64,000 nt of DNA from sequence record OK272482.1; one strand, given 5' to 3'. This document shows, piece after piece, positions 34,163 through 48,066 of the stretch. The notes under the pieces are model-generated. The model made no database searches. It was not told the DNA's origin and was given only the letters and a program-made list of their open reading frames with translations. The position numbers and the translations under genes were made by a program. This stretch comes from Escherichia phage JLBYU08. Numbering within the stretch: the first letter of the stretch is position 1; each line of letters opens with the position of its first letter.

Positions 34163-34357
34163 TAAGTTCTTCTCTTTTCTTTTACCGAGTAATTCGGGTT
34201 TTCTGTTCTCTTCGGTTTGAAGGGGTATGGAGATACACCTGAGTGAACAGGGTGAACAACCGAACATTTGGCTATGGCATTAGCATGGCGAAGCGGACGG
34301 GTGACGAAAGAGGGGCCGGAGGACACCAGTCACTGCCATATGATATATGGGTGATAA

Positions 34358-34900
34358 CCTGAAGAGTCTGAATAAGTGTTTAAGTACCAGTCAGAGGAAA
34401 AGGTGAATGGTAGCCGAAGGGGGAGGGGGGGTTTCTTGTATCTTTAATTTGTATATTATGTATACACTTGTAAACCAATCTCATTTGAATTTGTTTACCA
34501 CACAAAGGGGATAGAGACAAATATTATCTATTAAACTTGAATTATTTATAGAAAATACCACAACACCACTTAAGTCTTTGATTTTACACACAAATCCTAC
34601 AGATATTCACCCTCCATATTTAACATACCTGTAACATATTCCATACCCTACCTGTCTGATCAATTCACCCAACCACACCCTCCATATTTTCCCTGTCTGT
34701 ACCACCCCTGCCCCGCCGGGAGTCCCGTCATATCTGGCTTTCCAGCAAATATCACACCCACAAATATCATTGCCTGAAGAGGGTTTCATCCCATAATACC
34801 TGCCTTACCTGAAGAGCGCTTCATATACCCCGTAAATTTTTTTAATTGACCTCCTCCCCGCCGCCGGAGGGGTCGGCTTTTCCCACACAGGCCTGAAGAG
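34358..34900 (+). repeat. four dispersed copies of CCTGAAGAG
   Basis: At 34358, 34773, 34808, 34892. The two central copies continue as CCTGAAGAG-sGs-TTCAT, 35 bp apart. Confidence 0.6.
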
Positions 34901-35143
34901 TCAGCCAGAAATATTTGAACAGGTCCAGTTATACCACGATTTTGACCTGACCGACAGGGAGGCCCGAAGGGTCTAGCTTTCAGCTAGAGTCCTTGCAGGA
35001 CCTACAGGAGCGCTGCCAGGCGGACGAAATGGGAATACTTCTCATTCTTATAACAATTCTCAAATATCAAGGCAGTGAGGCAAATTAATAGGTGAGGCCG
35101 TTCACATAGTGGCACAACATTTGCAATCTATTTTGTGTGGGGG

Positions 35144-35180
35144 AATGAGAATACATATCATTGTGAGAACCATTATCATT
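35144..35180 (+). promoter_or_regulatory. two tandem TGAGAA-N4-TATCATT boxes (Fur-box-like)
   Basis: aATGAGAATacaTATCATTgTGAGAACcatTATCATTa. Confidence 0.45.
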
Positions 35181-35532
35181 ACGGGCAATTTAACATAATA
35201 CCCATTATACGCACCACTGACGATACATACAGGGATTGATAACATGGGTTACTGTTTACGCATATAACAATTATATTTCTTACTATTTGTGTGGGATATA
35301 GTTAGCAGCCGATAGATTAGATATTGACCTGCGGACTTCTGACCGTCTAGACGTCTAAACGCCCACACAACAAGGCTTATACATACATCGCTGAATGTAA
35401 ACAGGGCCGCAAAAATGCTACCATACCAGATTGTAAATTTTTCATGCAGCACTTGACAAAGAGGAGAAAAACTTGTCTGACACAATATGACATACTGGGC
35501 ACATTAAACACACTTTAGACTTAATTGACATG

Positions 35533-35674
35533 CCTGACTGTTTACGCTGTCACTATTCACGCTATTACTATTCACTCCCTTTACTGTTCACGCTCTTACT
35601 GTTTACATGCTTAATGGTTTACATGCTTAATATACTGCATGTCTAATAGTTTACATAGCTAACTATTTATACAG
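35533..35674 (+). repeat. array of nine contiguous degenerate 14-17-bp units (core ACTGTTTAC / ACTATTCAC)
   Basis: Units start at 35533, 35547, 35562, 35577, 35593, 35610, 35626, 35642, 35659. The core recurs at 35251, 36058 and inverted at 35397. Confidence 0.7.
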
Positions 35675-35683
35675 ATATGATAA

Positions 35684-35908
35684 GCCATGCCATTCGTTTG
35701 CATGTTAATAATTTATGACATAATATAAAAGCAGGGCAACTATTAGCAGATCTATAGTTGCCTTGCTTGTCATGTCATGATTAACTAAATACAAGGCAAC
35801 TATGATCTGATTAATAGTTTGCAGACAAACTATCACGGGGGTGATGGTTACTGCTTTTATATTATGTCGCGACTCCGTCGCGCCATGCCATTCGTTTGCA
35901 TAGTTGCC
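35684..35908 (+). repeat. nested repeat structure (20-bp direct repeat, 16-bp inverted repeat, GGCAACTAT sites)
   Basis: GCCATGCCATTCGTTTGCAT at 35684 and 35882. CATAATATAAAAGCAG 35719-35734 versus CTGCTTTTATATTATG 35851-35866. GGCAACTAT at 35735 and 35795, inverted at 35754 and 35900. Confidence 0.75.
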
Positions 35909-36511
35909 TTATTGTTACAGATAAAATAATTGTATTGTTAATTATTTCTTATCTTTCTCTTAGTCATCTAATGATTCCAGTTAGTATAGTAATGTACAGT
36001 AAACATTAGACGACTAAAGATTTATATGCTTATAATAACTTACAGTGACAATTTCGGACTGTTTACGAAAAATGTTGACACCTGAGCCGATTTATGTTAT
36101 GCAGTTTACACGAATAATTATTTTATGCAGGTATTGACTATTCCGTTATTCCATGGTTGGAATAAATACTTAGCAGTCTATAGAATGGTGACGCTACGTG
36201 AATTCTGGAATTTAGTGGCTATAGTTATACTCGATTTTTCACGTAGAACACGCTTTTGTTAGTGTGTAAGTGTATGACTTATAAAGATTTTTAGTTGTTG
36301 ACAAGATACTGAAGATATGCATCAGGTTAAATTTTGTGCAATAGCGGCATTACGTGCAATTTTGGGAGAGAAAACGGGCAAAAATGGCCTTGCTACCACA
36401 CAATGAAAAATTATGCAATAGTTATTTTCCATGTATATTTGTACAGTGTGTGGGATTAATGGCTAGTCAATTATTCCACTTGCCAGGTAGGGCCGTTTAT
36501 GGTAGGAGAAG

Positions 36512-36542
36512 AGCAGACAAAAAGAAAGGGGCCTAAGCCCCT
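36512..36542 (-). terminator. rho-independent terminator closing the island
   Basis: Minus strand AGGGGC-TTAG-GCCCCT followed by TTCTTTTTGT, 20 nt after stop of 36562 gene. Confidence 0.7.
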
Positions 36543-36561
36543 TGATAATTCAGTTAAAAAA

Positions 36562-36981
36562 TTATAATGATTCGTATATTTCAAAAATCCGATTTGCCAG
36601 GTCGTTACGGTAGCGGAATTTTTCCTCACGTTTGATCATAAGATCTTTATAGCCGTACTCTTTAAGCACTTCATTAACTTTATGGCGGCATACTTTCATA
36701 TTATCCTGCGCGTCACCAATAAATCTGTTGCTATGGTGCATGGCTTTAATTTCTTCTTCCAGGACCAGGGCAACTATGCGGACCGGATCAAGCTGATAGG
36801 CGGTAACATCCATGCGGCATTGTAGACGGCTTTTAACGTCCGCCACCGGATATACTGCAACCTCTTCCCCGTCAACATTGACAATAATTAGTTTACCATC
36901 GATTTCGAATCCTTTCGCCGCCGGACCGTGACAAAAAGCGTTATCAAAGCTATATGCCGGATTATCAGATTTAATGTTCAT
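36562..36981 (-). CDS. hypothetical protein (island)
   Basis: 139 aa; own promoter TTGACA-N17-TATATT at ~37032-37060 (minus); followed by terminator 36512-36542. Confidence 0.55.
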   Translation of the reverse strand: MNIKSDNPAYSFDNAFCHGPAAKGFEIDGKLIIVNVDGEEVAVYPVADVKSRLQCRMDVTAYQLDPVRIVALVLEEEIKAMHHSNRFIGDAQDNMKVCRHKVNEVLKEYGYKDLMIKREEKFRYRNDLANRIFEIYESL

Positions 36982-37127
36982 GGTGTTTTTTTACCTCTCA
37001 GTTAATTTTCTTACAACTTCCCTTCAAAAAAGAATATAGCAAAACTGCCGATCCCTGTCAACCAAGGATAGCATAATTTTTATGTGATCAAGGGGCTTTA
37101 TTGCCCCTGACCATGTAACTTGTTGTA

Positions 37128-37391
37128 TTATTTGTTGCTCATCCAGTTTTCCCAAGCTGCCTGATAATCTGCCTCACTACGGCGGATCTCTTCTTGTTCT
37201 TCAAGTCGGATCTCTTCTTCCAGGTACCCCAAGATGTCAGCCTTTTTGGTCTGGCGTAGCATCCAGTCATCTTTTTTGCGGGTAAAGATCTTATAAGCTT
37301 TCTCGCAAACCTCTTTTTTGCTACCTTTCTGGACTTCCAGAACACGATAAGCCATATATTGAACTAGTTTGAGCTGGTCAAGACGTTTCAT
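37128..37391 (-). CDS. hypothetical protein (island)
   Basis: 87 aa, charged/helical; RBS AAGAGGAAA. Confidence 0.55.
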   Translation of the reverse strand: MKRLDQLKLVQYMAYRVLEVQKGSKKEVCEKAYKIFTRKKDDWMLRQTKKADILGYLEEEIRLEEQEEIRRSEADYQAAWENWMSNK

Positions 37392-37453
37392 GATGTTTTT
37401 CCTCTTTATGTGGTTTTTGTTTAGTGGGCCTTTTGGCCCGTGTCATTATCTTA

Positions 37454-37726
37454 TTACTTACGGCGGCAGAATTCAAGCGTTTTTAATTGATAATCTTCCT
37501 CAGCCTGGAGTACAACCGCCTCGATCATTTCGTTGGCATTGTTGAAGCCATACCCTTTAGCGAACTCATCCGCACCACCTTCGTGATCATGTTCTGCGTT
37601 CATCGCTTCCACGAAATGGAATTCAAGATTATTGAGATAAGGGCTTGATGTTCCGTCCTCTTTTTCGATGAGATCCCAAATAGCATTAAAACGTGATTCG
37701 ACTTCTTGATTAATCCAGCTTGACAT
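37454..37726 (-). CDS. hypothetical acidic protein (island)
   Basis: 90 aa; promoter-hairpin-RBS cassette upstream (hairpin 37756-37769). Confidence 0.55.
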   Translation of the reverse strand: MSSWINQEVESRFNAIWDLIEKEDGTSSPYLNNLEFHFVEAMNAEHDHEGGADEFAKGYGFNNANEMIEAVVLQAEEDYQLKTLEFCRRK

Positions 37727-37834
37727 AATGTTTTCCTCTCTTCTGGTTGTTGTGTGGGCACTTTTGCCCCTTCAAGATAAATGTTACCCCACCACCTGGC
37801 AGATGTCAACGGTTTTTATAGTTCTTATATGACA

Positions 37835-37863
37835 GGCAGGCCCGGTGATTGTCTCCCCCTGTT
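37835..37863 (-). repeat. inverted copy of the AACAGGGG..GAGACAATCACCGGGCCTGCC element
   Basis: Reverse complement matches 47398-47430 except for a 4-nt indel. Confidence 0.7.
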
Positions 37864-37945
37864 CCCAAGTGCCGCCCGTTTAATAAGAATAGCAAAAGGG
37901 GCCGAACAAGTCAACCCCCAAAATCAGTACCAAAACACTTTTTAT

Positions 37946-38257
37946 TTATACGGTCCGATCATTGGCCTTTGTCCAGGACCTGGCGATCCGTTTCCCGGTC
38001 ACCTGGAACGGAGACTGCATTGTGTGTAAGGAGTCCAGCGTAAGGGAGGACCGTTTACGGCGTATCTTCAGGATCGCTAACGTATTGTCCATCTCACGGC
38101 CAGGCCCTGGGCGGTATGGTGTGCCTCCAGCGTTAAGGTTGATGATCTCATGTATTGAGATCCGGCGTTGTTTTGCTTCCGCATCTTTGAAGATAGCCAG
38201 CGGAGGAGCTATGCGTTGCCGATACCAATCTAAAACGGTTGGCGTAATAGCGATCAT
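37946..38257 (-). CDS. hypothetical protein (island)
   Basis: 103 aa; ATGA overlap with upstream gene; the C-terminal third looks low-complexity, so the end is uncertain. Confidence 0.4.
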   Translation of the reverse strand: MIAITPTVLDWYRQRIAPPLAIFKDAEAKQRRISIHEIINLNAGGTPYRPGPGREMDNTLAILKIRRKRSSLTLDSLHTMQSPFQVTGKRIARSWTKANDRTV

Positions 38258-38445
38258 ATTTTACCCCCTATGTAGTCCGGTCGGTTTTTCTCTGTCATGC
38301 GCTTAAGCAATTCTTGCATATGGCTGATAGCTTGTAGCGTGTCTTCTTCCAGGCTTGAATCTACATAATCAGGATCGTCTATGACCTTTCTATGATTATG
38401 ATAACGCAGTACCGCCAATACCTTTCTAACTTGTTCAGTATTCAT
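38254..38445 (-). CDS. hypothetical protein (island)
   Basis: 63 aa; RBS AAGGGAG. Confidence 0.5.
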   Translation of the reverse strand: MNTEQVRKVLAVLRYHNHRKVIDDPDYVDSSLEEDTLQAISHMQELLKRMTEKNRPDYIGGKI

Positions 38446-38461
38446 TTTACATCTCCCTTAC

Positions 38462-38752
38462 TTATTGTTGGCGGTTTACGTAAGCTTTACCGTTTACGGT
38501 GATGGGCAGATCTTCCAGGTCTGGATCTTCCTTAAGGTCGCGAGCAAGCTCACCGCACCGGATACCCTCAAATCCGTAGTACTCTGTTGTACCGTCATTA
38601 AAAGTTTTAGTGGCAAGGCATAAGCGATAAGTAACCCCGATTCGATTGACGGCATGAATATCCGTTAGATTAACCTCTTTTGCCAGCTCATTAGCCATTG
38701 CAGGCGCACTAAGTCCAACAACCAGGGCAACCACTGCGATCATCTTTTTCAT
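38462..38752 (-). CDS. secreted small protein (island)
   Basis: 96 aa; clear signal peptide MKKMIAVVALVVGLSAPAMA. Confidence 0.6.
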   Translation of the reverse strand: MKKMIAVVALVVGLSAPAMANELAKEVNLTDIHAVNRIGVTYRLCLATKTFNDGTTEYYGFEGIRCGELARDLKEDPDLEDLPITVNGKAYVNRQQ

Positions 38753-38843
38753 TGTGTCTATCCTCTTTCTGCTACGTTTAAGGCGGCGGTAACCGCCTGT
38801 TTATGCTTTGTTGGTTAATTTTCGGGTATCGGTATAAATTAAA

Positions 38844-39059
38844 CTATGCTGTACGCTCAACTATAACAACGGTTTGGGGGATCTCCCCTTCCACCACTAG
38901 TAAGGCCTTTTTCTGCGTGATAGATATCTTTACCCGTTGCAGCGTGGCGGTGAAGTCTTTCATTTCGTCACGCGGTGTTTTAGTGCAGTACCAGATCTCA
39001 GGCTTGCCGATCTGTAAGTTGCGTAAAAATTCTGTTTTGCCTGTTTTGTTAGTGATCAT
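38844..39059 (-). CDS. hypothetical protein (island)
   Basis: 71 aa; RBS GAGGTTGG. Confidence 0.5.
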   Translation of the reverse strand: MITNKTGKTEFLRNLQIGKPEIWYCTKTPRDEMKDFTATLQRVKISITQKKALLVVEGEIPQTVVIVERTA

Positions 39060-39068
39060 TTGCCAACC

Positions 39069-39173
39069 TCACCCGATACCGTTGGAAGACAAGATCATAT
39101 TAGACATGGTTGCAATCAGGCCAATACCCAGGGCAATAACCAAGATCACTGCATCGATTAATTTCTGTTTCAT
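39069..39173 (-). CDS. 34-aa membrane micro-peptide (island)
   Basis: Not in the track; MKQKLIDAVILVIALGIGLIATMSNMILSSNGIG. Confidence 0.4.
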   Translation of the reverse strand: MKQKLIDAVILVIALGIGLIATMSNMILSSNGIG

Positions 39174-39250
39174 AGTGTTTATTCTCTTCTGTTAGTAACC
39201 TTATTCATGGGGCCGCTACCACAGCCCCAGGGTAAGGCGGCTATGTGCTT

Positions 39251-39496
39251 TTAGTGTTTCATTCCAACCATCGCGGCACGGATCGCCGTAGTGCTGTACT
39301 TGAAGCCGTCCGGGGTCTTATCTTGTCCGGTTAGCTCCAGAAAAAGCATCATATCCCGCGCCGCATCATTACGATCAGCATTAGCGTTAATAAATCCTTG
39401 GGCCAACCGGTACAATGACTCATCGTTATTAATCCAAAGGCTTACATTCCAATGAGTTTTGTTTTTGTAACCGTTATAACCTTTATTGCTTTTCAT
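39251..39496 (-). CDS. hypothetical protein (island)
   Basis: 81 aa; W-rich N-terminal motif THWNVSLWINNDESLY; cassette upstream. Confidence 0.55.
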   Translation of the reverse strand: MKSNKGYNGYKNKTHWNVSLWINNDESLYRLAQGFINANADRNDAARDMMLFLELTGQDKTPDGFKYSTTAIRAAMVGMKH

Positions 39497-39587
39497 GGTG
39501 TTTACCTCTTCTTTGTTCCGGGTGGCGGATCATTCCACCACCTTATGTATTATGCTTTGTTAGATGGTTGTTTGTTGTCAAACTATT

Positions 39588-39767
39588 TTAACGATAATCA
39601 TCGTACGCTTTATTAACCTGGCGAATATAACATTCAAAAGCTAGATCAATAGATTCATATTCACGGATATACTCACCATAGGAAACCACATACATTTCTA
39701 TAACTTCCTCATATGCGAGGAGAATAGAATCTAAGCCTACGATCTCGGTCTTTGCAATAATAGCCAT
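39588..39767 (-). CDS. hypothetical 59-aa protein (island)
   Basis: Not in the track; cassette TTGACA-N16-TATATA, hairpin 39794-39808, RBS AAAGAGGA directly upstream. Confidence 0.5.
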   Translation of the reverse strand: MAIIAKTEIVGLDSILLAYEEVIEMYVVSYGEYIREYESIDLAFECYIRQVNKAYDDYR

Positions 39768-39843
39768 GATTTTTTATCCTCTTTGTGGTTGGTGGGGCTT
39801 GTTGCCCCCTTTGATTTATATACTACAGTTTTATATGGTCATG

Positions 39844-40077
39844 TCAACTATTTTCAAAAAATTTTTCTGCTGTAATATTTTTCCCGGTAGGGTTCGCTAC
39901 TTTCAAAATTTTATCATGCACTGGACGCCCAAAAGAATAAGCGCCGTACACAGTGCACCAATAATCGCCGTCAGGCTGTACTATTACAGCCGCATAGGGT
40001 ACGCCTTTTTCGTTTTTGCTGACAAAATAGATCACGTTGCCATTAATAGCCTCGGCGCGTTTAATTTGTTCCATCAT
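39844..40077 (-). CDS. hypothetical protein (island)
   Basis: 77 aa; hairpin GGGGCCGAAAAGGCCCC in leader. Confidence 0.55.
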   Translation of the reverse strand: MMEQIKRAEAINGNVIYFVSKNEKGVPYAAVIVQPDGDYWCTVYGAYSFGRPVHDKILKVANPTGKNITAEKFFENS

Positions 40078-40132
40078 GATGATTTGCCTCTCTTTATTTT
40101 CATAATTGGGGGCCTTTTCGGCCCCGCCAGGT

Positions 40133-40417
40133 TTATTTATTGATAGCGTGCAGCGGGAAAGGTACGCCAGGTTGATAGATAACTTTTACAACCTCATCAG
40201 AGCAAAAGAAATTACAAAATTCACCCTGATAAGCCTCATCCTCTTTTAATTCTTCATCAACATACTGGAAAAAGTAGTCAATGCTTGGATAATCCTGACC
40301 GGGATTATATTCAACCATGGTTAATAACAATTCTTGATCATTCCGTATGATATGCATACCAGCTTTTAAGTATTTGGCTTCCATTTCTACTACATCGCCA
40401 ACGGTAACAATAGCCAT
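40133..40417 (-). CDS. hypothetical acidic protein (island)
   Basis: 94 aa; RBS TAGGAG. Confidence 0.55.
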   Translation of the reverse strand: MAIVTVGDVVEMEAKYLKAGMHIIRNDQELLLTMVEYNPGQDYPSIDYFFQYVDEELKEDEAYQGEFCNFFCSDEVVKVIYQPGVPFPLHAINK

Positions 40418-40549
40418 GGTTTTAACTCCTATCTATCCGGTTAATGATTGGAGGCCTCACCGCCCCCGACACCCTTTATTATCCATATTGTAGGACTTGA
40501 TGCAAGTACTTCTTTAAAAATTTTTTAAGCGCCTTGGGGGCCGCTGTAA

Positions 40550-40587
40550 CGCCAAAATAATAAAGGCTATGCAACCGCATAGCCTTT
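40550..40587 (-). terminator. rho-independent terminator
   Basis: Minus strand AAAGGCTATGC-GGTT-GCATAGCCTTT followed by ATTATTTT. Confidence 0.7.
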
Positions 40588-40622
40588 ATGTGATTATATC
40601 GCTGCAGGCCCTGCCAGGGACC

Positions 40623-40973
40623 TTATTTTGCATTCTTTCCTATATTGCCGCTACGGTACCAGCGTTTACGGTGAAAATGGTAATAATCACCATCGGCATT
40701 GAACATCAGATGATTTTCAATAACCAGCTTACGAAGGTGGGCCGGATCTTGTTCCATTCTTGCCAGATTCTGGCGGCTGTTACGTAAGCGGATAAATTCT
40801 ATATTCAGGCCGTTGATTGCAGCATGGATGTCAAAGTAACCACCTTTGAGACGTTCACGCATGGCGTTAAGCTCAACACAATATACAGATTTCTCACAAA
40901 TCAAGGTATTAGCCAGGGCGCGGACCTGGGCAAGGGGGTTAAGCTCATTAAGGTAATATAGTTTTACTTTCAT
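40623..40973 (-). CDS. hypothetical protein (island)
   Basis: 116 aa; followed by terminator 40550-40587. Confidence 0.55.
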   Translation of the reverse strand: MKVKLYYLNELNPLAQVRALANTLICEKSVYCVELNAMRERLKGGYFDIHAAINGLNIEFIRLRNSRQNLARMEQDPAHLRKLVIENHLMFNADGDYYHFHRKRWYRSGNIGKNAK

Positions 40974-40990
40974 AAAATCACCTGCTGAAA

Positions 40991-41290
40991 TTAGTTTGAG
41001 AAAACATCGTTCACAATAGCGATCACAATGCCGCCCACCTTGTCACGGTCAACAATGCACAAATCACCATAGATCATGTGGTAGTCTGGATGATCTTTGA
41101 CGGAATAGTCGATAAGTGTTTTCTTGTCATCCAGCTTACTAACTTCCATTCTCATAACGATATGAGAATCATCAAAGGCATTATTCCGAAAAGTCATAAC
41201 CTGACCGCCAGGGCACCCGGTGATTTCCACCTCCACGCCGTCTACGATCTGACCATCAAAGAAATAAAGATTATTAGCCTGGATAAACAT
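40991..41290 (-). CDS. hypothetical protein (island)
   Basis: 99 aa from ATG 41290 (RBS AAAGGAG); preceded by 44-bp promoter repeat 41335-41378. Confidence 0.55.
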   Translation of the reverse strand: MFIQANNLYFFDGQIVDGVEVEITGCPGGQVMTFRNNAFDDSHIVMRMEVSKLDDKKTLIDYSVKDHPDYHMIYGDLCIVDRDKVGGIVIAIVNDVFSN

Positions 41291-41334
41291 GATCATTACT
41301 CCTTTTTGCACTGATTATTTTAACAAGGTTTAAA

Positions 41335-41378
41335 TTTACTTTATTGATGGCCCTGGAGTCAAGGCCATCTAAAAATAA
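41335..41378 (-). repeat. 44-bp promoter-palindrome repeat, copy 1
   Basis: tttactttattgatggccctggAgtcaaggccatctaaaaataa. Minus strand reads GATGGCC-TTGACT-CCAG-GGCCATC...TAAATT. Confidence 0.8.
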
Positions 41379-41381
41379 ATT

Positions 41382-41582
41382 TTACAGGCCTACAATCTCT
41401 TTAATTCGTTTTACTGCTGCCTCAGCGCCTTGAGGGTAAAAATTATGGTAACCAATCACGCGAGTGATACTAATCGCCGTTTGATGATCTTCATAATCAC
41501 CTTTAAAGATTTCTTGACCGTCAATCAGCACGGCAATTTTTTCTTCTTTTTTGAAGTTAATAACGCGGATATTGTTGCTCAT
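41382..41582 (-). CDS. hypothetical protein (island)
   Basis: 66 aa; cassette with hairpin GGGGAGACACTCCCC upstream. Confidence 0.55.
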   Translation of the reverse strand: MSNNIRVINFKKEEKIAVLIDGQEIFKGDYEDHQTAISITRVIGYHNFYPQGAEAAVKRIKEIVGL

Positions 41583-41684
41583 TTTGTTTCTCCTTTTGGA
41601 ACTTTGTCTATGCGGTGGGGAGTGTCTCCCCGTTGATTGTTATTATCCATATTCTGGATCGGATTGCAACACTCAGGGAGAAAA

Positions 41685-41720
41685 AAATTTGAAAAGTTAG
41701 GCCCCCATGATCGGGGGGCC
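41685..41720 (-). terminator. rho-independent terminator
   Basis: Minus strand GGCCCCC-CGATCAT-GGGGGCC followed by TAACTTTTCAAATTTTTTT. Confidence 0.65.
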
Positions 41721-41724
41721 GTTC

Positions 41725-41844
41725 TTAGTTACTTACAGCGATAAAGTACATCCCTACGCCTAGCAATATTTCAAGGGCGATAATCTCAAGCCATACCATA
41801 ACGCGGCGCACCTTATCGGTGCATGGCTTATCCTTGGTTGTCAT
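41725..41844 (-). CDS. 39-aa membrane micro-peptide (island)
   Basis: Not in the track; RBS AAGGAAAGGGGGAG; MTTKDKPCTDKVRRVMVWLEIIALEILLGVGMYFIAVSN; terminator 41685-41720 follows. Confidence 0.45.
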   Translation of the reverse strand: MTTKDKPCTDKVRRVMVWLEIIALEILLGVGMYFIAVSN

Positions 41845-41953
41845 CGTCTCCCCCTTTCCTTCTGGTAGTAGTGACGCGATCTACAATGGCCCCCAGGAGT
41901 CCTATCCCGACACACACCACAAGAAAAATTATCTCCGCTGTTGTTCGATCCAT
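41828..41953 (-). CDS. 41-aa membrane micro-peptide (island; frame ambiguous)
   Basis: MDRTTAEIIFLVVCVGIGLLGAIVDRV... looks like a genuine TM segment, but it overlaps an alternative-frame ORF. Confidence 0.3.
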   Translation of the reverse strand: MDRTTAEIIFLVVCVGIGLLGAIVDRVTTTRRKGGDDDNQG

Positions 41954-42086
41954 TGTTATAAAATTCCTCAAGATCAGGCCTGAAAATAAAGCGTTCGTTA
42001 TTGAATCCATCCCGCCAGGCGGCTGGCTTCAAATCTTCACTAAAGGGATTAATTAACGTGGCATTATTTAAACGGCTGGTCCACAT
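41841..42086 (-). CDS. hypothetical protein (island; frame ambiguous)
   Basis: 81 aa from ATG 42086. The N-terminal two-thirds look protein-like; the C-terminal third overlaps the TM ORF in another frame. Confidence 0.3.
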   Translation of the reverse strand: MWTSRLNNATLINPFSEDLKPAAWRDGFNNERFIFRPDLEEFYNNGSNNSGDNFSCGVCRDRTPGGHCRSRHYYQKERGRR

Positions 42087-42435
42087 ATTTTCTATTCCTC
42101 TCAAATAGGCGATCCGCCTCAGTTAAACAAATCTCATGGGCGTGATCTCTGGTTTTAGCTTCATCGAAAACCTGTTGTGCAAGGCTGCAACGTAGGGAGA
42201 CTGGAAGATCACTATAATAGGCGTTGACAAACGTTTGAGCGTCGTACAGGTCTGAAAATACTTTACCCTTTCTATTATTCCCCTTGTCAACAATTGCAAG
42301 GATAACCAATACAATAGTTGCAACCACCCCCAGGAAAATAGATATAATAAACCATAAAAAGGCGGATCTTCCCATCTTGCCAGCGATCCAGGCGTTAAAC
42401 AAGGCAACCAATACAGCCAAAATAATAAATTCCAT
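42064..42435 (-). CDS. membrane protein, 2 TM + soluble C-terminal domain (island)
   Basis: 123 aa from ATG 42435 (RBS AAAGAGG); MEFIILAVLVALFNAWIAG...FLWFIISIFLGVVATIVLVILAIV. Confidence 0.55.
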   Translation of the reverse strand: MEFIILAVLVALFNAWIAGKMGRSAFLWFIISIFLGVVATIVLVILAIVDKGNNRKGKVFSDLYDAQTFVNAYYSDLPVSLRCSLAQQVFDEAKTRDHAHEICLTEADRLFERNRKYVDQPFK

Positions 42436-42459
42436 TCTATGTACCTCTTTTACAGTTCT

Positions 42460-42490
42460 GATTAACAATAAGGCGGCAAATATGCCGCCT
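42460..42490 (-). terminator. rho-independent terminator
   Basis: Minus strand AGGCGGCA-TATT-TGCCGCCT followed by TATTGTT. Confidence 0.6.
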
Positions 42491-42499
42491 GCTACCTGA

Positions 42500-42880
42500 T
42501 TAAAAATTATCGCCGTAAATCTTTCCGCTTTCTACCCATACCACCACGCGAGGCATACTATCCCACACGTCTTGTTTTAGATTGAGCGCGTGCAATTCTT
42601 CGGTGGTGCTCATACCGGGCACGGGCTGATTGTATACTGCAAAACGACCGCCTGCATAATCATAGGCCAGGGTTAAATCACACTGGATCATCTTTTTGAT
42701 CATGGTATTAAGCATGGCGTTAGCCGCATATTGATCACGTTTTAAAGGCAACTCTTTGATTAGTTTGCGATAGTTTTCGATATGGTCGCACACTGTTTCA
42801 CGAGGAAGATCTTTCATATCTTCACGGAATGTAACCAGGTTAAACATAACGGTGTCAATAGCCTTGGTAGTGTTTTTCAT
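42500..42880 (-). CDS. hypothetical protein (island)
   Basis: 126 aa; cassette TTGCAA-N17-TATATT, hairpin GGGGGCAAGACGTTTGCCCC; terminator 42460-42490. Confidence 0.55.
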   Translation of the reverse strand: MKNTTKAIDTVMFNLVTFREDMKDLPRETVCDHIENYRKLIKELPLKRDQYAANAMLNTMIKKMIQCDLTLAYDYAGGRFAVYNQPVPGMSTTEELHALNLKQDVWDSMPRVVVWVESGKIYGDNF

Positions 42881-42970
42881 GATGTTATCCTCTTTGTTTT
42901 GTGTTGGGGCAAACGTCTTGCCCCCTTGAGTTTTAATATAGCAGGTTTTTAGGTTATTGCAACACTTTAT

Positions 42971-43594
42971 TTATGAAAAAGTCATCTCACCATATTCATC
43001 GACATCAAACCGCCAATCATTGGCCTCGATAAGGCCGATCAGGTTTTCTGCGGTGAACTGTTCTAGATAGGCCTCCTCCAGGTCTACGTAAACCTTGCGG
43101 GATAGCTCCCGTACCGTCTCGGTGATCAGTTCTTCCAGGTCTTCCACTTTGTTTTCTTGTTTGGCGGTCAGATCTAGCCAAGTGGTATCAATGTACCCGC
43201 TTACAGTGTTTTCATGGCTGTAATGGCTGTACTTGTCGCGTTCAACACTGGCTGATAACTCGCCATCGTGCATTGTGCCGAACAAGTGACGAATTGATCG
43301 GAACTTGGTCAGGGCCTTTACTTTACGCAAAAATTTTTCTAAATCCACGTTTTCAGCACTGATTGACGCGCCGTCACCCTGGCACCAAAAGCCTGACCAA
43401 TGTACTTCGGTATCTTCAAGGCCATACTCTGGAAAAACATATTCTTTATAGTATTCAATTACACTTTCTGCAAAAAAGTTATCCCCGCTGTGTTCTTCTC
43501 TTTCGCGGACCATTTCAACGGCTTTTTCTTTTTGTTCGTCGGTCAGCACGTCGAAAGATAAATTGTAACCTGCGGTAATGTTAACGGTGGTCAT
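42971..43594 (-). CDS. hypothetical protein, largest island product
   Basis: 207 aa; conserved-looking HWSGFWCQGDGASI motif; cassette 43623-43679 upstream. Confidence 0.6.
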   Translation of the reverse strand: MTTVNITAGYNLSFDVLTDEQKEKAVEMVREREEHSGDNFFAESVIEYYKEYVFPEYGLEDTEVHWSGFWCQGDGASISAENVDLEKFLRKVKALTKFRSIRHLFGTMHDGELSASVERDKYSHYSHENTVSGYIDTTWLDLTAKQENKVEDLEELITETVRELSRKVYVDLEEAYLEQFTAENLIGLIEANDWRFDVDEYGEMTFS

Positions 43595-43622
43595 GATATT
43601 TTCTCCTATTTTCTTTGTTAGT

Positions 43623-43641
43623 GGCGGGAAGTTTTCCCGCC
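43623..43641 (-). promoter_or_regulatory. 5'-leader GC hairpin (example cassette)
   Basis: GGCGGGAA-AAC-TTCCCGCC begins about 10 nt after the -10, with no U-tract after it. Confidence 0.55.
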
Positions 43642-43651
43642 TGTGTGTTTA

Positions 43652-43679
43652 AGTATACTTATTGAGGCTTACTTGTCAA
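43652..43679 (-). promoter_or_regulatory. island promoter (example cassette)
   Basis: Minus strand TTGACA-N16-TATACT. Confidence 0.6.
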
Positions 43680-43929
43680 CACTATTTTTTAAATTATTGT
43701 GGCGCAAAATGTTTAAAATCTCCTCAACGTCATCAACACGGCGGCAATTTTTAAACGCTACCAATTGCCCCATGATTTTAATCACTGGGCGGCCTTGCCA
43801 GTGCCCTTGAATAAAGCGCGCCTTAACCTTATCGGTGGAACTATCCCGCCACCAAACGGCTTTATTATTGCAGTAGTAAAAATTATTTAGGACAACATCG
43901 ACTTTATCAAAATTTTTCAATTTACGCAT
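43669..43929 (-). CDS. hypothetical protein (island)
   Basis: 86 aa; promoter TTGACA-N17-TATACT at ~43957-43985 (minus). Confidence 0.55.
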   Translation of the reverse strand: MRKLKNFDKVDVVLNNFYYCNNKAVWWRDSSTDKVKARFIQGHWQGRPVIKIMGQLVAFKNCRRVDDVEEILNILRHNNLKNSVDK

Positions 43930-44112
43930 GGCGTTTACCCCCCTTACTTCTCGCTTTGATGTGATTAGTATAGCTAACCTGTTGACGATGTCAATGATAT
44001 TTTTAACGCCATGAAACGGCCCTGGGCGATGTTTTCAGGTTAAAGGGGGCGATTGCATAGGTGGGGGCCTTTTTGGCGCTTACAGGGCCAACCAGGGGCG
44101 CTATTCGTAGGA

Positions 44113-44144
44113 TAGAAATAAAAAGCCCCGCACAATGGCGGGGC
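44113..44144 (-). terminator. rho-independent terminator
   Basis: Minus strand GCCCCGC-CATTGT-GCGGGGC followed by TTTTTATTT. Confidence 0.75.
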
Positions 44145-44152
44145 GTTGGTTG

Positions 44153-44350
44153 TTATTTGTCTTTATGGCGGTATCGTTCTGCCTGTCGTTCACGTTCCAA
44201 AAGTAGGCCGGGCAATTTACGATCATAATGATTACGCCAGATCTTCCCAAACCTTTTTGGCTTATTCAGTTTATTGTTACGCTGGCGGCGTTCTGGCAGC
44301 TCTTCGGAATCATGAGGGCGCTTTACAATTTTCTCGAAATTAATTTTCAT
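44153..44350 (-). CDS. highly basic small protein (island)
   Basis: 65 aa from ATG 44350 (RBS AAGGGGGG); Arg/Lys-rich; terminator 44113-44144 follows. Confidence 0.5.
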   Translation of the reverse strand: MKINFEKIVKRPHDSEELPERRQRNNKLNKPKRFGKIWRNHYDRKLPGLLLERERQAERYRHKDK

Positions 44351-44693
44351 ATATTCCCCCCTTGCTAACTTCAATATTGGCCTGAATAGCCCGGATACGG
44401 CGCTTTATAACTTCCTGATCTGTGTGGTCGTATCCCCAAAAGTCTACAATTTTTGCGCCCCCCGCCTCCAGGCGGTATAGTGTTTCCTGCATTTTGTAAG
44501 CCGGGATCGGTCGCGGTGTTACTTGGTCACCTTCTTTATTTTTATACTTTATAATATAATCTTCGTTATCGTTGAATGCCCAAAATGGATATTCTGCAAG
44601 GGCGGTACTTCCTCTTTCCTTTTTATCCTGGATCTTATTTACAATTAAAGCCGTAGCAATAGCGCCAATAATAAAACTTGCCCCGCTGATCAT
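44340..44693 (-). CDS. N-terminally anchored membrane protein (island)
   Basis: 117 aa; MISGASFIIGAIATALIV. Confidence 0.55.
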   Translation of the reverse strand: MISGASFIIGAIATALIVNKIQDKKERGSTALAEYPFWAFNDNEDYIIKYKNKEGDQVTPRPIPAYKMQETLYRLEAGGAKIVDFWGYDHTDQEVIKRRIRAIQANIEVSKGGIYEN

Positions 44694-44767
44694 GTACTTT
44701 CTCCTTTCATGGTGTTAATAAATTATCTTTATAGATGGCCCTGCAACCAGGACCACCGAAAAAATAA

Positions 44768-45013
44768 CTATTTCACAATGCCTACAAAACAGATCCCGCC
44801 TTCACCTATATAAGCAATATCGGTCACTTTATAACTTGTCAAGATCTGCTTATTTAGTTCATTAATAAAATCGGTCATTGCGTTGGTGTAGTTGTCTTCC
44901 GTGTCTAAGGCATAATCCCAGGTGTACACCTTTTTACGTCCGAAGCCTTTTACCATGATACGGGCGCTTTTGGTGTTGGTAGGGGCATAATATTTGGTGA
45001 TTAGTGCTGCCAT
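44768..45013 (-). CDS. hypothetical protein (island)
   Basis: 81 aa; preceded by 44-bp promoter repeat 45057-45100. Confidence 0.55.
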   Translation of the reverse strand: MAALITKYYAPTNTKSARIMVKGFGRKKVYTWDYALDTEDNYTNAMTDFINELNKQILTSYKVTDIAYIGEGGICFVGIVK

Positions 45014-45056
45014 GGTTTTAACTCCTATGCATTAGTTCAGTGTTAACAGTATAAAG

Positions 45057-45100
45057 TTTACTTTATTGATGGCCCTGGTGTCAAGGCCATCTAAAAATAA
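45057..45100 (-). repeat. 44-bp promoter-palindrome repeat, copy 2
   Basis: Identical to copy 3 and 1 mismatch to copy 1. Minus strand TTGACA-N18-TAAACT with the -35 flanked by GATGGCC/GGCCATC arms. Confidence 0.8.
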
Positions 45101-45102
45101 GC

Positions 45103-45444
45103 TTACTCGTTTTCTTCCAGCTCCGCAAGCTCTTCTTTTGCTTCTTCTAACTCTGTCTGTAATTCCTGGTATTCTTCATCGTCCTCAATATCCAGGCTGT
45201 CGATGTAGTCGCTAAATCCGCAGCGGTAAGCGATAGGATCTAGCTCCTTGAGGATACGCGACGGAAGAAAAGAAATGTTTCCGATCATAATTTCGCCGTA
45301 GATCTCGTCTAACCATTCATCATAGTTTTCGTCGTACTTGTCCTCGTCGATTTCAAAGTTATCGATCTTATTCTCAAGGTCTGCGATCTGTTTTTTCAGT
45401 TCAGCGATCTGCATAGCTTTTTCTGAGGCGGTCATAGTAGTCAT
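45103..45444 (-). CDS. very acidic coiled-coil protein (island)
   Basis: 113 aa; about 40% D/E by eye; cassette with hairpin 45471-45483. Confidence 0.55.
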   Translation of the reverse strand: MTTMTASEKAMQIAELKKQIADLENKIDNFEIDEDKYDENYDEWLDEIYGEIMIGNISFLPSRILKELDPIAYRCGFSDYIDSLDIEDDEEYQELQTELEEAKEELAELEENE

Positions 45445-45495
45445 GGTGTTTTTCTCCTTTTGTGTGTTCTGGGAAGTTTTCCCGTTTATGTGCTT

Positions 45496-45523
45496 ATTAT
45501 ATCGATTTAAGTTAGCTTGTCAA
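45496..45523 (-). promoter_or_regulatory. island promoter (example cassette)
   Basis: Minus strand TTGACA-N16-TATAAT, followed by hairpin GGGAAAACTTCCC (45471-45483). Confidence 0.6.
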
Positions 45524-45643
45524 TTAAAAGTTTAAGAAAAATTTTGCGACACCGTTGGCGCTACCCATCAACATTTGCGCCAGGATGTACCCAATGATGC
45601 AAACGATGATGGTTACCTTTGTGTGCTGGCGTGTAGTGCTCAT
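45524..45643 (-). CDS. 39-aa membrane micro-peptide (island)
   Basis: Not in the track; RBS AAAGGAGG; MSTTRQHTKVTIIVCIIGYILAQMLMGSANGVAKFFLNF; preceded by promoter repeat 45678-45721. Confidence 0.5.
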   Translation of the reverse strand: MSTTRQHTKVTIIVCIIGYILAQMLMGSANGVAKFFLNF

Positions 45644-45677
45644 CTTTAAGCCTCCTTTTCCGCTCAACTGTGGTTAG

Positions 45678-45721
45678 TTTACTTTATTGATGGCCCTGGT
45701 GTCAAGGCCATCTAAAAATAA
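45678..45721 (-). repeat. 44-bp promoter-palindrome repeat, copy 3
   Basis: tttactttattgatggccctggtgtcaaggccatctaaaaataa. Confidence 0.8.
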
Positions 45722-45723
45722 AC

Positions 45724-46119
45724 TCAATAAGTTTTTAGTACTTTCCCGTCCAATCTGTCAAGCTGGATCTCGATAGCTGCAGAAAACCTATTGTAAACCA
45801 CATCGCCCAGGGAGTCCAGCCAATCTATGACGTTATATACCTGCTCTTTATTCTTGCAAGTCCGGATCCGTTTCATTACGTAAGACGGATCAATATTAGC
45901 GCTCTCGTTGTTGTGGTCCTGCGCCTGGCCTGCTGCGCTAGTTATAGATTTTACAACCACCTGAAAGGGCTTTAAGGTGCCTTTTGCGTTCATCTCACGC
46001 GCTTTTGCGGCGCGGTTGTTATATGTTACACAACGGCGGCAAATGTTGACCAAATGCATATCAATAATTTTTTCATCGTTTGCCAGTTCGTTCATGATGC
46101 GGCGTACGTTCTTATTCAT
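45724..46119 (-). CDS. hypothetical protein (island)
   Basis: 131 aa; promoter TTGACA-N17-TAAACT upstream. Confidence 0.55.
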   Translation of the reverse strand: MNKNVRRIMNELANDEKIIDMHLVNICRRCVTYNNRAAKAREMNAKGTLKPFQVVVKSITSAAGQAQDHNNESANIDPSYVMKRIRTCKNKEQVYNVIDWLDSLGDVVYNRFSAAIEIQLDRLDGKVLKTY

Positions 46120-46201
46120 GATCTTTTTCCTTTGTGCTGGCGGGAAACATTCCAGCCTTTTGTGTCTAGTTTACTTAAATTTTGCAGCGTGTCAATGATT
46201 T

Positions 46202-46600
46202 TTATTCGTGGGCGCATGTTACAATGTGTTTTTTATAGCCCAGGTGGTCAGCAAGTGCCGACAAAAACTCTTCTTCGTAGATCCAGCCGTCGGCAGTGAT
46301 CCCCATAGCATTTAATGCGCTCTCAAGTGCTGCGTTAGCTTTATCGTAACCGTGACCGCTCGCCTTGCCGCCAGTATAACCGTACTTATTGTTCTTGTTG
46401 TCGTGAATCCAAAACACGCAGTAGTGAGTGTTCCCGCTGGCGGCGGCATAATACCGGATCTCAGCTACTTCGTGCAAATTATTGTCATCGTCCAGGCCCA
46501 CCAGATTATAAGCCTTGTAAAATCCACGATCACGGCGGCAGTTCTTGACATCAGAAAAAGAAAAGTCTGCATTATCAAAATTAAAGGTAGTGGTTTTCAT
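46202..46600 (-). CDS. hypothetical protein (island)
   Basis: 132 aa; motif GGKASGHGYDKANAALESAL; RBS TAAGAGGA. Confidence 0.55.
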   Translation of the reverse strand: MKTTTFNFDNADFSFSDVKNCRRDRGFYKAYNLVGLDDDNNLHEVAEIRYYAAASGNTHYCVFWIHDNKNNKYGYTGGKASGHGYDKANAALESALNAMGITADGWIYEEEFLSALADHLGYKKHIVTCAHE

Positions 46601-46664
46601 GATTTTATCCTCTTAGTGTCTTTTGTGCTTTTAGTGTATTTGGTGTCGGACTGTATGTCAATAC

Positions 46665-46862
46665 TTATTTTTTATTAAACCAGTGGTTGATCTGACCTTT
46701 TGTCAGGGCGCAACGATTAAGCTGTTGCAGGGTATAGCTATGACCGCGACGAAATTTATAAAGGCCTTGCCCGTTGTTGATGGTTACATCCACCCGGCAA
46801 ATCACTTGATTGGTGACCACCTGGCGAGTGTTGCGACGTACTTTGATCCCGTATGCGTTCAT
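46665..46862 (-). CDS. hypothetical basic protein (island)
   Basis: 65 aa from ATG 46862 (RBS AAAGAGGA) downstream of promoter at ~46905-46940. Confidence 0.5.
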   Translation of the reverse strand: MNAYGIKVRRNTRQVVTNQVICRVDVTINNGQGLYKFRRGHSYTLQQLNRCALTKGQINHWFNKK

Positions 46863-46948
46863 AAATTTATCCTCTTTACTGGTTAGTGCGGTGTTGTTCA
46901 CCTTGTAGGGTAATAATACCATGATTAACCTTGTTGTCAACGACTATT

Positions 46949-47110
46949 TTAAATTATTTTTATGATAGAATCCACCTGCCGTCCCCGCCAGGTTAACCAC
47001 CATTTTTCGTACTCTTCTTTATGTTCCAACGCTCCCGCCATAGCCTTTTCAACCAGGGCGATAGCCTCAGAGTCATTAATAGCTACATTTTCCAGGGGGG
47101 ATCATATCAT
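46949..47110 (-). pseudogene. first island ORF, interrupted by in-frame TGA at codon 3 / C6-tract frameshift
   Basis: Strong RBS GAGGAGG, then ATG ATA TGA, continuing in frame for 50 codons (...VAINDSEAIALVEKAMAGALEHKEEYEKWW...). A second ATG 5 nt later is +1 out of frame across a C6 run (G6 at 47095-47100 on +). Confidence 0.3.
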
Positions 47111-47268
47111 TTTTGTACCTCCTCTTCAATTGTTACCTATCCTGTAGCATAGGCCCACCAGGTTTACAAGCCTTCATTCTCCCCTACCTGGTCAGTTAGG
47201 TCCTGCCAGGCTGGCCCCGCCAGGTGGCACAATATACCTATCGAAAGGACGGCAGGCACCGGTGACGG

Positions 47269-47285
47269 GGGAGACAACCACCGGG
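47269..47285 (+). repeat. GGGAGACAACCACCGGG (related core copy)
   Basis: 16/17 identical to 47408-47424. Confidence 0.55.
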
Positions 47286-47301
47286 GATGGGCGCTGCATA
47301 A

Positions 47302-47326
47302 AATGAGAACGGTTATCATTATCATT
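47302..47326 (+). promoter_or_regulatory. Fur-box-like operator
   Basis: GAGAACGGTTATCATTATC (47305-47323) matches the Fur consensus GATAATGATAATCATTATC at 15/19 by hand count; flanked by 8-bp inverted repeat TGCATAAA/TTTATGCA. Confidence 0.45.
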
Positions 47327-47397
47327 TAAAAATTTATGCAAAAAAAAAAATCCTTGCTTTCTTTGTCCTGTGTGATACTATAATAACAAGCCGGGGC

Positions 47398-47430
47398 AAC
47401 AGGGGCCGGGAGACAATCACCGGGCCTGCC
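47398..47430 (+). repeat. AACAGGGGccggGAGACAATCACCGGGCCTGCC element
   Basis: Directly downstream of a TATAAT (47379-47384). Inverted partner at 37835-37863. Confidence 0.7.
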
Positions 47431-47442
47431 CGTTATTCTGCA

Positions 47443-47490
47443 AACGAGAATGATTATCATTCAAAATTCTAAATGAGAACTCCTCGCATT
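47443..47490 (+). promoter_or_regulatory. Fur-box-like operator plus a degenerate third box
   Basis: GAGAATGATTATCATTCAA (47446-47464) matches at 14/19; second box aaATGAGAACtcctcgCATT at 47471-47490. Confidence 0.45.
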
Positions 47491-47571
47491 TAATAAATTT
47501 AATTAGCACGCTAATTACCCTCCGTAACAATTTACTATAAAATAGTATCCACTAAAATATTCCCATATAGA

Positions 47572-47760
47572 AATTTTAAAAATCCATTTCTGAAAACGAA
47601 AAATCGATTTCGTCCCCAAAAATTTCAGGTTGAGAGCCGGAACGATTTCCAGAAAATCCGATTCAGAAAACGAAAAACAGATCGAGTACTGAGAAATTTA
47701 TCGAGAAAAATTTTCAGAAAATCCAAGCCCTGAAATGAAAAGTAGATCGAGTACCTGGAA
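47572..47760 (+). repeat. three degenerate direct repeats, period ~64-73 bp
   Basis: Each unit reads GAAAATCC-N5-6-TGAAA(A/T)(C)GAAAA-N2-(A)GATCGAGTAC; the first unit is more diverged. Confidence 0.6.
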
Positions 47761-47925
47761 AGCTGCACCGCAACTTCAAGATAGCGGTTAGATTGTTACC
47801 ATAGAAGGTCAAGGGTAAGTGGAGGAAGTTCTAGTAGAGAGAGGTTAGCATGTGTGGGAAATCTATAATGGTGGCCTGGAATATGGTGCAAACGATAGGA
47901 TGAGTTATTCAGCTTGTCGCGCCTA

Positions 47926-48035
47926 CTCTGAAAAATCCATTTTAGTTTTCGATCCATTTTCTGATTTTCTAAGAATTTTAAAATATCCAGCCCGGTGAAA
48001 TATCAAAAGGAGGAAATCCATTTTAGAAATCCCCC
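47926..48035 (+). repeat. further AAATCCATTTT motifs in both orientations
   Basis: GAAAAATCCATTTTAG, CGATCCATTTTCTG, GGAAATCCATTTTAG. Confidence 0.5.
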
Positions 48036-48066
48036 TTATACTTGATATGCCAGAAATTTTCAAGTA

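Follow-up and report, generated by a model that had tools for sequence, protein, structure and literature searches.

Binding sites for the host repressor Fur are known on phage genomes as operators of temperate-phage cargo. The stx1 promoter, which is carried on a temperate phage, is controlled by Fur. Fur-controlled cargo is also found on lambdoid phages in the form of the sit operon (PMC6969025). Sites of this kind are classical operators of one accessory gene expressed from the prophage. We examined Fur-box-like palindromes in a 64,000-nucleotide stretch of Escherichia phage JLBYU08 (sequence record OK272482.1; the whole stretch is called the window, and coordinates refer to it), which likewise place a host Fur box on a phage genome. 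Here, in contrast, the phage is virulent, the boxes are part of a conserved noncoding architecture, and no iron-related gene is located nearby. The strong boxes are confined to the terminal repeat of the genome and to the stretch just past two tandem, gene-less, rightward σ70 promoters. We propose, as a reading that we consider fairly probable, that these palindromes are high-affinity sites for iron-loaded host Fur that selection has maintained in rV5-like lytic phages. The literature searched contained no description of Fur boxes in virulent phages, and the boxes suggest an undescribed use of the host iron sensor by lytic phages.

The phage sites resemble the Fur boxes of E. coli (fhuA, fecI, ryhB, fhuF, and exbB) in having the same 19-bp palindrome, the same range of scores, and 6-bp overlaps between neighboring sites. 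The E. coli boxes overlap the −35 and −10 elements of iron-gene promoters, whereas the phage boxes are located either in the terminal repeat or ~50 nt past gene-less promoters (Table 1). The phage sites also differ in favoring G at position 6 and, in relatives of the phage, in forming arrays with a 29-bp spacing.

Over the 14.5 kb around the boxes, identity to many Vequintavirus coliphages of the rV5-like type, including isim, navn, and WalterGehring, is 93–95%, and by this similarity the window is from an rV5-like lytic coliphage of that genus. The boxes flank an island of small minus-strand genes of unknown function (36562–47110). The left flank (34300–36560) is the 2.2-kb 'noncoding' box drawn in the rV5 genome paper, which did not find the terminators expected there, and the right flank (47111–48066) is a ~950-bp gap within an otherwise unbroken series of minus-strand genes. 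Both flanks are AT-rich (39–40% G+C).

An earlier note on this DNA had listed five copies of an imperfect palindrome, TGAGAA-N4-TATCATT, in these flanks. The repeat is real. In the 64 kb searched, there are three exact instances of the pattern (35146, 35164, and 47304), one instance with a single mismatch (47445), and one with two (47474), and no further match with zero or one mismatch occurs anywhere. The list of copies was nevertheless incomplete, as a sixth copy (35028–35046) and a shifted site (47308–47326) had been overlooked, and its fifth copy (47472), while present, is weak. The natural register is a 19-bp 9-1-9 palindrome, AATGAKAAT-N-ATTMTCATT, with a 7-1-7 core, TGAKAAT-N-ATTMTCA. 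Counts made by hand against the Fur-box consensus, 15/19 for 47305–47323 and 14/19 for 47446–47464, were reproduced on re-derivation, in a register that is 3 bp off the dyad. That all copies have the same orientation, as had been stated, says little when the motif is palindromic, and the GAGAA and GATAA halves are interchanged in relatives.

Scoring of the boxes was carried out with a Fur matrix derived by unseeded palindromic expectation maximization (width 19) from 17 E. coli K-12 Fur-regulon promoter regions. The search converged on AATGATAATCATTATCATT, and the architecture of the matrix is that of the published M9 single-dimer model (−9 to +9, 7-1-7 core; PMC2189734). The best E. coli promoter sites scored 25.0 (ryhB), 23.5 (fhuF), 23.3 (fecI), and 20.0 bits (fhuA), with an overall range of 9.0–25.0 bits. 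The five top matches in the 64 kb coincide with the boxes (24.6, 23.6, 20.3, 19.2, and 17.5 bits), and the box scores fall within the range of the Fur-regulated E. coli promoter sites. The top score had a mean of 15.3 bits over 200 Markov shuffles of the window and never exceeded 22.3 bits, such that the top two boxes are above every shuffle. Six matches of at least 16 bits were seen in the window, as compared with 0.37 expected from the Markov shuffles. Shuffling of the flanks only gave P = 0/1000 for the right flank and P = 0.005 for the left flank. Apart from the 17 promoter regions, the 92 kb of E. coli loci that were fetched contained no match of at least 16 bits, and none was present in the 75 kb that make up the rest of the sister genome isim or in ~135 kb of other phage DNA; roughly 20 unrelated viral loci fetched by chance contained few, weak matches. 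The matrix comparison with background that the earlier note had called for thus came out in favor of the boxes: they beat shuffled AT-rich flanks, and the notion that they score no better than shuffled AT-rich DNA therefore fails.

The note had also placed the best boxes in the range of functional Fur sites, and in silico this holds, as they score like the best E. coli sites and are nearly identical to those of fhuA, fecI, and ryhB. Box R2 matches the fhuA site at 17/19 positions, and box R1 matches the fecI site at 17/19 positions. Fur shifts oligonucleotides carrying the predicted fhuA, ryhB, exbB, and fhuF sites (Chen et al., PMC2189734). An offset of 6 bp separates the sites at 47302 and 47308, and similar pairs occur in relatives; such spacing between neighbors is characteristic of clustered Fur sites, as described in the same paper (PMC2189734).

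Table 1. Features of the palindrome-bearing region of the window
Feature	Coordinates	Strand	Sequence	Score (bits)	Remarks
Direct terminal repeat homolog (459 bp)	35019..35477				Virion left end 35019, right end 35477
Box L1	35028..35046		AATGGGAATACTTCTCATT	14.0	Sixth copy; starts 9 nt from genome end
Box L2	35144..35162		AATGAGAATACATATCATT	17.5	
Box L3	35162..35180		TGTGAGAACCATTATCATT	19.2	Abuts L2, 18-bp offset
Weaker Fur-like site	36560..36578		AATTATAATGATTCGTATA	16.1	At 3' end of last island gene
Third module copy	~37830..37920	−	GAGACAATCAC (leader core)		TTGACT-17-TATTCT, then leader; without strong box
Module A	47228..47299	+	GAGACAACCAC (leader core)		Remnant −10, then leader
Double box R1	47302..47326		AATGAGAACGGTTATCATT; AACGGTTATCATTATCATT	23.6; 20.3	Second site shifted by 6 bp (47308–47326)
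Module B promoter	47332..47385	+	TGaTACTATAAT		A-tract, TTGCTT, then the sequence given; read from sequence
Module B leader	47390..47441	+	GAGACAATCACCGGGCCTG (core)		G+C-rich
Box R2	47443..47461		AACGAGAATGATTATCATT	24.6	Top match of window; ~+52 from predicted module B start
Weak box R3	47472..47490		AATGAGAACTCCTCGCATT	11.0	29 bp after R2
AT-rich gene-free stretch	47500..48066				Three ~57-nt repeats (47566–47761); rightward promoters point into it

The location of the left boxes follows from the ends of related genomes. Both termini of the phage ECP2309 record consist of an exact 459-bp repeat that corresponds to 35019–35477 of the window, and the bov10K2 record opens precisely at 35019 and closes at 35018. 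Vequintavirus Gotham has been reported to have 459-bp direct terminal repeats with a fixed start (PMC7471380). The three left boxes occupy positions 10–28, 126–144, and 144–162 of the terminal repeat and are therefore present at both ends of the virion DNA. Measured from the left end, the island is the first gene block, and the right boxes are located 12.28–12.47 kb in, at ~9% of the 136.4-kb genome. Positions 47301 and 34532, at which some records start, were considered as genome ends and rejected, since the exact terminal repeat backs 35019/35477 only. Box L1 is unchanged in eight relatives save for two central positions, and changes in box L3 among relatives are confined to the center and to positions 6/14.

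The right boxes are associated with a promoter-plus-leader module that has three copies in the window, two of them rightward (module A and module B, the latter spanning 47332–47441 in total) and one on the minus strand. Both rightward modules oppose the minus-strand genes and point into AT-rich, repeat-rich DNA, and no convincing plus-strand open reading frame (ORF) was found downstream of them. The right boxes begin ~50 nt after the predicted transcription starts. PVP-SE1, nepoznato, and IMG/VR relatives share the layout of the module B promoter. Reading of the sequence also gave a weak candidate for a leftward promoter, TTGAAT-18-CAGAAT, whose spacer contains R2. Vequintavirinae retain its TTGAAT, Phapecoctavirus does not, and that this promoter is real is a possibility only. 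In a scan for σ70 patterns neither flank was enriched over shuffles, and our promoter claim is therefore limited to the two conserved modules. The leader folds into a hairpin as a single sequence (z = −2.66). RNAalifold on 20 leader copies yielded no consensus structure, and the hairpin is therefore that of a single-sequence fold only. The right flank matched no known RNA family in Rfam searches at gathering and E-value thresholds.

The module is similar to the PeSL (promoter-early stem-loop) cassettes that were reportedly described in T4-type phages by Arbiol and colleagues in 2010, in being a short, repeated, intergenic cassette with a σ70 early promoter and a G+C-rich element, located among small variable early genes. 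It differs in that the G+C-rich element comes after the promoter and is of unproven structure, and in that there are three copies in 64 kb, two of which are followed by Fur boxes. The cassette (core GAGACAAHCACCG..CCTG) is conserved in Vequintavirinae and Stephanstirmvirinae and occurs on two G+C-rich contigs (L007 and L010). Three relatives have the same CC-to-GG change in both cassette types, a pattern that suggests either concerted evolution or a trans-acting reader. A 68-bp segment that is present in 7/7 relatives compared is deleted here at 47205–47215, between ggccccgccagg repeats.

For conservation of the boxes, relatives were taken from GenBank records; a protein-anchored IMG/VR search yielded two loci only. 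A piece of the right flank (~47393–47502, ~70–110 nt, including R2) is shared at 72–86% identity by distant genera and has never been annotated. These include Phapecoctavirus, Seunavirus PVP-SE1, and Mydovirus, along with phages of Pantoea, Pectobacterium, and Aeromonas. PVP-SE1, nepoznato, and several IMG/VR lineages have the same order of a σ70-like promoter, the G+C-rich leader, and boxes. In eight lineages, the first box follows the 19-nt leader core at a distance of exactly 14 nt, a fixed distance that is seen in Seunavirus, Phapecoctavirus, and several IMG/VR lineages, and the Mydovirus phages Mydo and KPP-1 have, at the homologous place, the same pair of boxes with a 29-bp spacing. Relatives have between one and five boxes, with a commonest center-to-center spacing of 29 bp (12/26 neighboring pairs), and their boxes score up to 27.5 bits, above all 17 host promoters. 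The commonest box of the relatives matches the E. coli ryhB site at 18/19 positions. A motif obtained de novo from phage DNA alone, AATGAGAATSATTCTCATT, correlates with the E. coli Fur matrix at r = 0.92.

The boxes are kept across genera where the flanking DNA no longer aligns. In six boxes from eight Vequintavirus sequences, variability was inversely related to Fur information content (rho = −0.63, p = 0.004), a result that is supportive only, given the small sample of related sequences. The substitutions lie at central and other low-information positions, and one relative has exchanged GAGAA..TATCA for GATAA..TCTCA. The two-place layout is conserved as well. Klebsiella phage KPP-1 (Mydovirus) has a 514-bp repeat at 116,316–116,829 (PMC9862379). 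Boxes of 24.5, 24.7, and 22.9 bits are located in and just to the right of this repeat, and boxes of 27.5 and 16.6 bits occur at 125,152 and 125,181, 8.8 kb further in. This is the same layout as in the phage studied here, even though the end regions of the two do not align. PVP-SE1, nepoznato, and several IMG/VR contigs have, just upstream of the module, a second conserved noncoding element, AGAAGAGGAARCGCCACCCCACGGCG.AAAGGCGGGGCTAAC...GGATCGCCGGTAG, with its own promoter (loci L004 1290–1440 and L003 1340–1470). This element, which is absent from the window, may be a small RNA gene.

Beyond these relatives, the exact 19-mer AATGAGAATGATTATCATT occurs in at least 120 IMG/VR contigs, as compared with an estimated chance expectation of ~1–5. 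Among the matches listed, 119 loci contain 252 nonoverlapping boxes of at least 18 bits. Only 29% of these are located in long stop-free stretches, although such stretches make up 81% of the DNA, and the 119 loci represent 68 unrelated sequence contexts. The boxes often form clusters in loci L063–L181 (e.g., 15 matches in L146, 12 in L065, and 8 within 1.5 kb of L157). Some of the contigs with the 19-mer may be prophages or host fragments, and Fur-box clusters on viral DNA look widespread from these counts.

Phage T5 (NC_005859.1) has boxes at 9552, 9656, and 9691/9697 (22.6–27.5 bits), all of which are inside the annotated injection stop signal and which bracket 9618, the calculated shear point of first-step transfer. 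(The box region, NC_005859.1 9552–9721, corresponds to locus L182 5553–5722.) The paper on the injection stop signal discusses DnaA boxes and many repeats and does not mention Fur (bioRxiv 10.1101/866236). The injection stop signal and the right flank are alike in being conserved, repeat-rich, and noncoding, and in being located at the inner edge of a left-end cluster of small early genes. They are similar in position as well, at 7.9% of the genome in T5 and ~9% (12.3 kb) here, and both have Fur-grade boxes. The T5 region differs in being located inside a 10-kb terminal repeat and in having paired DnaA boxes, and two-step DNA entry is a T5 feature that is not known for rV5-like phages. VEc33, a close relative of T5, has the same boxes (L138, 1045–1571) beside paired DnaA boxes and a perfect LexA box (tACTGTATAAATATACAGTa). 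In contrast to VEc33, neither flank of the window contains a LexA core, and a search of the flanks for DnaA boxes gave a single match, to a relaxed pattern, in the left flank (TTTTACACA, 34582). The set of sites seen in T5 is therefore not reproduced here.

The boxes are very probably bound by host Fur. On the sequence evidence, no binding partner is nearly as parsimonious as host Fur, since all informative positions match, unrelated phages that share the host share the motif, and no Fur homolog was found in the phage (tblastn with E. coli Fur gave nothing better than E = 3.1 in ~139 kb of phage DNA). The earlier note had offered a phage-specific repressor as the alternative. The presence of the same 19-mer in T5-like phages, which are unrelated to this one, and in many further viral contigs makes a repressor private to this phage unlikely. 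Neither a cognate protein nor a motif private to the lineage was found, and a nonhomologous phage protein could be involved. A 61-amino acid plus-strand ORF (46962–47147) was considered as the binding protein and set aside, as it is unlike the lone plus-strand genes that precede the module in PVP-SE1 and Mydo.

Fur binding and an iron response are predicted to operate as follows. In iron-replete cells, Fur dimers would occupy the boxes, and in relatives the arrays of two to five boxes spaced 29 bp apart would become coated. Fur positioned at ~+50 would act as a roadblock that halts the rightward noncoding transcripts, and the weak leftward promoter candidate might be repressed as well. When iron is scarce, Fur would leave, and transcription would proceed rightward into the AT-rich DNA, against the leftward early genes. 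The phage would thereby sense the iron state of its host at the edge of its left-end cluster of small early genes. No Vequintavirus transcriptome was found in the literature searched.

Several observations weigh against this proposal. Its support comes from sequence, and the matrix derives from our own motif search rather than from a curated list of footprinted sites. The palindromes had been called operators in the earlier note, a term that finds no support, as no box overlaps the −35 or −10 element of a strong promoter, and a Fur roadblock at +50 is a nonstandard mode of action. The deletion of 68 bp took the TTGACA −35 and the T-rich UP part of the first rightward promoter. The boxes in the terminal repeat have no adjoining promoter, and a purely transcriptional role therefore leaves these copies unexplained; as the roadblock does not account for them, they may have a role at the level of DNA (end protection, entry, replication, or packaging) or as a decoy. 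At position 6, phage boxes have G in 57–73% of cases, whereas E. coli sites have T in 64% and G in 18%. This preference could reflect a different protein; G at this position also occurs in the E. coli fhuA, fecI, ryhB, exbB, and fhuE sites. Lastly, the right-flank module is almost invariant across the genus, and selection on the boxes is therefore not separable there.

One alternative is that the boxes function in trans as a decoy. Replicating genomes, in hundreds of copies with ~7–8 strong sites each (counting terminal-repeat copies twice), would soak up Fur and de-repress the host regulon (iron uptake, RyhB, and NrdHIEF), which would feed iron-dependent phage DNA synthesis. De-repression of Fur-controlled genes by multicopy Fur boxes is the principle of the Fur titration assay. 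The best phage boxes match or beat the best host sites (27.5 bits in relatives vs. 25.0 bits for ryhB), they form arrays of up to five sites, and they overlap no promoter, all of which would suit a decoy. A decoy has no need, however, for a fixed 14-nt spacing or for conserved places (the terminal repeat and 8–12 kb in), and the unique sequence of this genome has only 4–5 strong sites. A preprint (bioRxiv 10.64898/2026.04.02.716235) describes early degradation of host DNA by T5, a phage with the same arrays; on that account, de-repression of the host cannot be the purpose in T5. We consider a decoy function unlikely.

A phage protein or some other non-Fur protein might instead use the palindromes, either as origin iterons beside an AT-rich unwinding region or as sites for packaging or end processing; we judge this to be quite unlikely. 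The lambda origin has four dyad-symmetric iterons and an AT-rich region, and the phage boxes resemble it as regularly spaced arrays of ~19-bp palindromes (29 bp apart in relatives) beside AT-rich, repeat-rich DNA. Three boxes are in the terminal repeat, with one of them 9 nt from the end, and the G at position 6 is systematic. Lambda iterons, however, bind the phage O protein and lie within the O gene, whereas the motif here is that of a host repressor, and neither an adjacent initiator gene nor a candidate DNA-binding protein was found. No informative position departs from the Fur motif, and its secondary preferences (C at positions 5 and 9) are matched as well. The same 19-mer in unrelated T5-like phages and in the 68 unrelated IMG/VR contexts among the matches listed is difficult to account for by private phage proteins. 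According to the rV5 genome paper, skew changes only where gene orientation switches. As for chance AT-rich palindromes or neutral, functionless remnants, the low G+C content of the flanks and the mild enrichment of the TGAGAA-N4-TATCATT pattern at up to three mismatches (47 matches vs. 32 expected in the window) would be in keeping with them. The matrix scores are above those of shuffles, however, the boxes persist where their flanks have diverged beyond alignment, and substitutions track Fur information content, and we see hardly any likelihood that the boxes arose in this way.

Returning to host Fur as the binding partner, a bolder version of the proposal, which we hold to be very unlikely, is that Fur-box arrays form a host-dependent checkpoint, common to rV5-like and T5-like phages, for genome entry or for progression from early to later stages. 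The left end, with its boxes and the ~12-kb early block, would in this speculative scheme enter first. The gene-less promoters at 47.2–47.4 kb would then, and this too is a long shot, drive or license the remaining genome, with Fur ~50 nt downstream as the brake. E. coli RNA polymerase is known to pull in T7 DNA. As the T5 boxes bracket the shear point at 9618, the logic of a checkpoint would supply the T5 injection stop with a molecular component.

Some further features of the region were observed. The weaker Fur-like site at 36560–36578 is conserved in five relatives and may be incidental. The ~57-nt repeats in the AT-rich, gene-free stretch contain TTCAGAAAACGAAAAA..GATCGAG, and a similar motif occurs in PVP-SE1. 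Tandem repeats of 15 nt (ACTATTCACGCTATT) are located just to the right of the terminal repeat, at 35537–35613. The first island gene (46949–47110, minus strand), which encodes 58 amino acids in isim, reads MI*SPLENV... here, with an in-frame TGA at codon 3; the next ATG leaves 30 amino acids, and this could be a true truncation or a sequencing error. A group I intron is located at 56419–56707 on the minus strand (Rfam RF00028, 72.5 bits, E = 1.9e-16), with the model matched over its full length, and the 64-kb window has no tRNA genes. Some 20 GenBank records (MG0656xx) named 'Campylobacter phage' are ~94% identical over the region to E. coli rV5-like phages, and these records are probably mislabeled as to host.

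Lytic phages are commonly regarded as following a fixed program. If the proposal is true, large virulent enterobacterial phages would be wired to the iron status of their host, or would borrow an abundant host DNA-binding protein at the level of DNA. The setting of the boxes, that is, their location in a terminal repeat and past gene-less promoters, their conservation across genera, and the parallel to T5, raises the interest of the boxes. The boxes in the T5 injection stop signal offer a new and cheap angle on a 50-year-old puzzle. As a practical aspect, phages of the rV5-like and T5-like groups are used in therapy and biocontrol, often in host tissue that is poor in iron.

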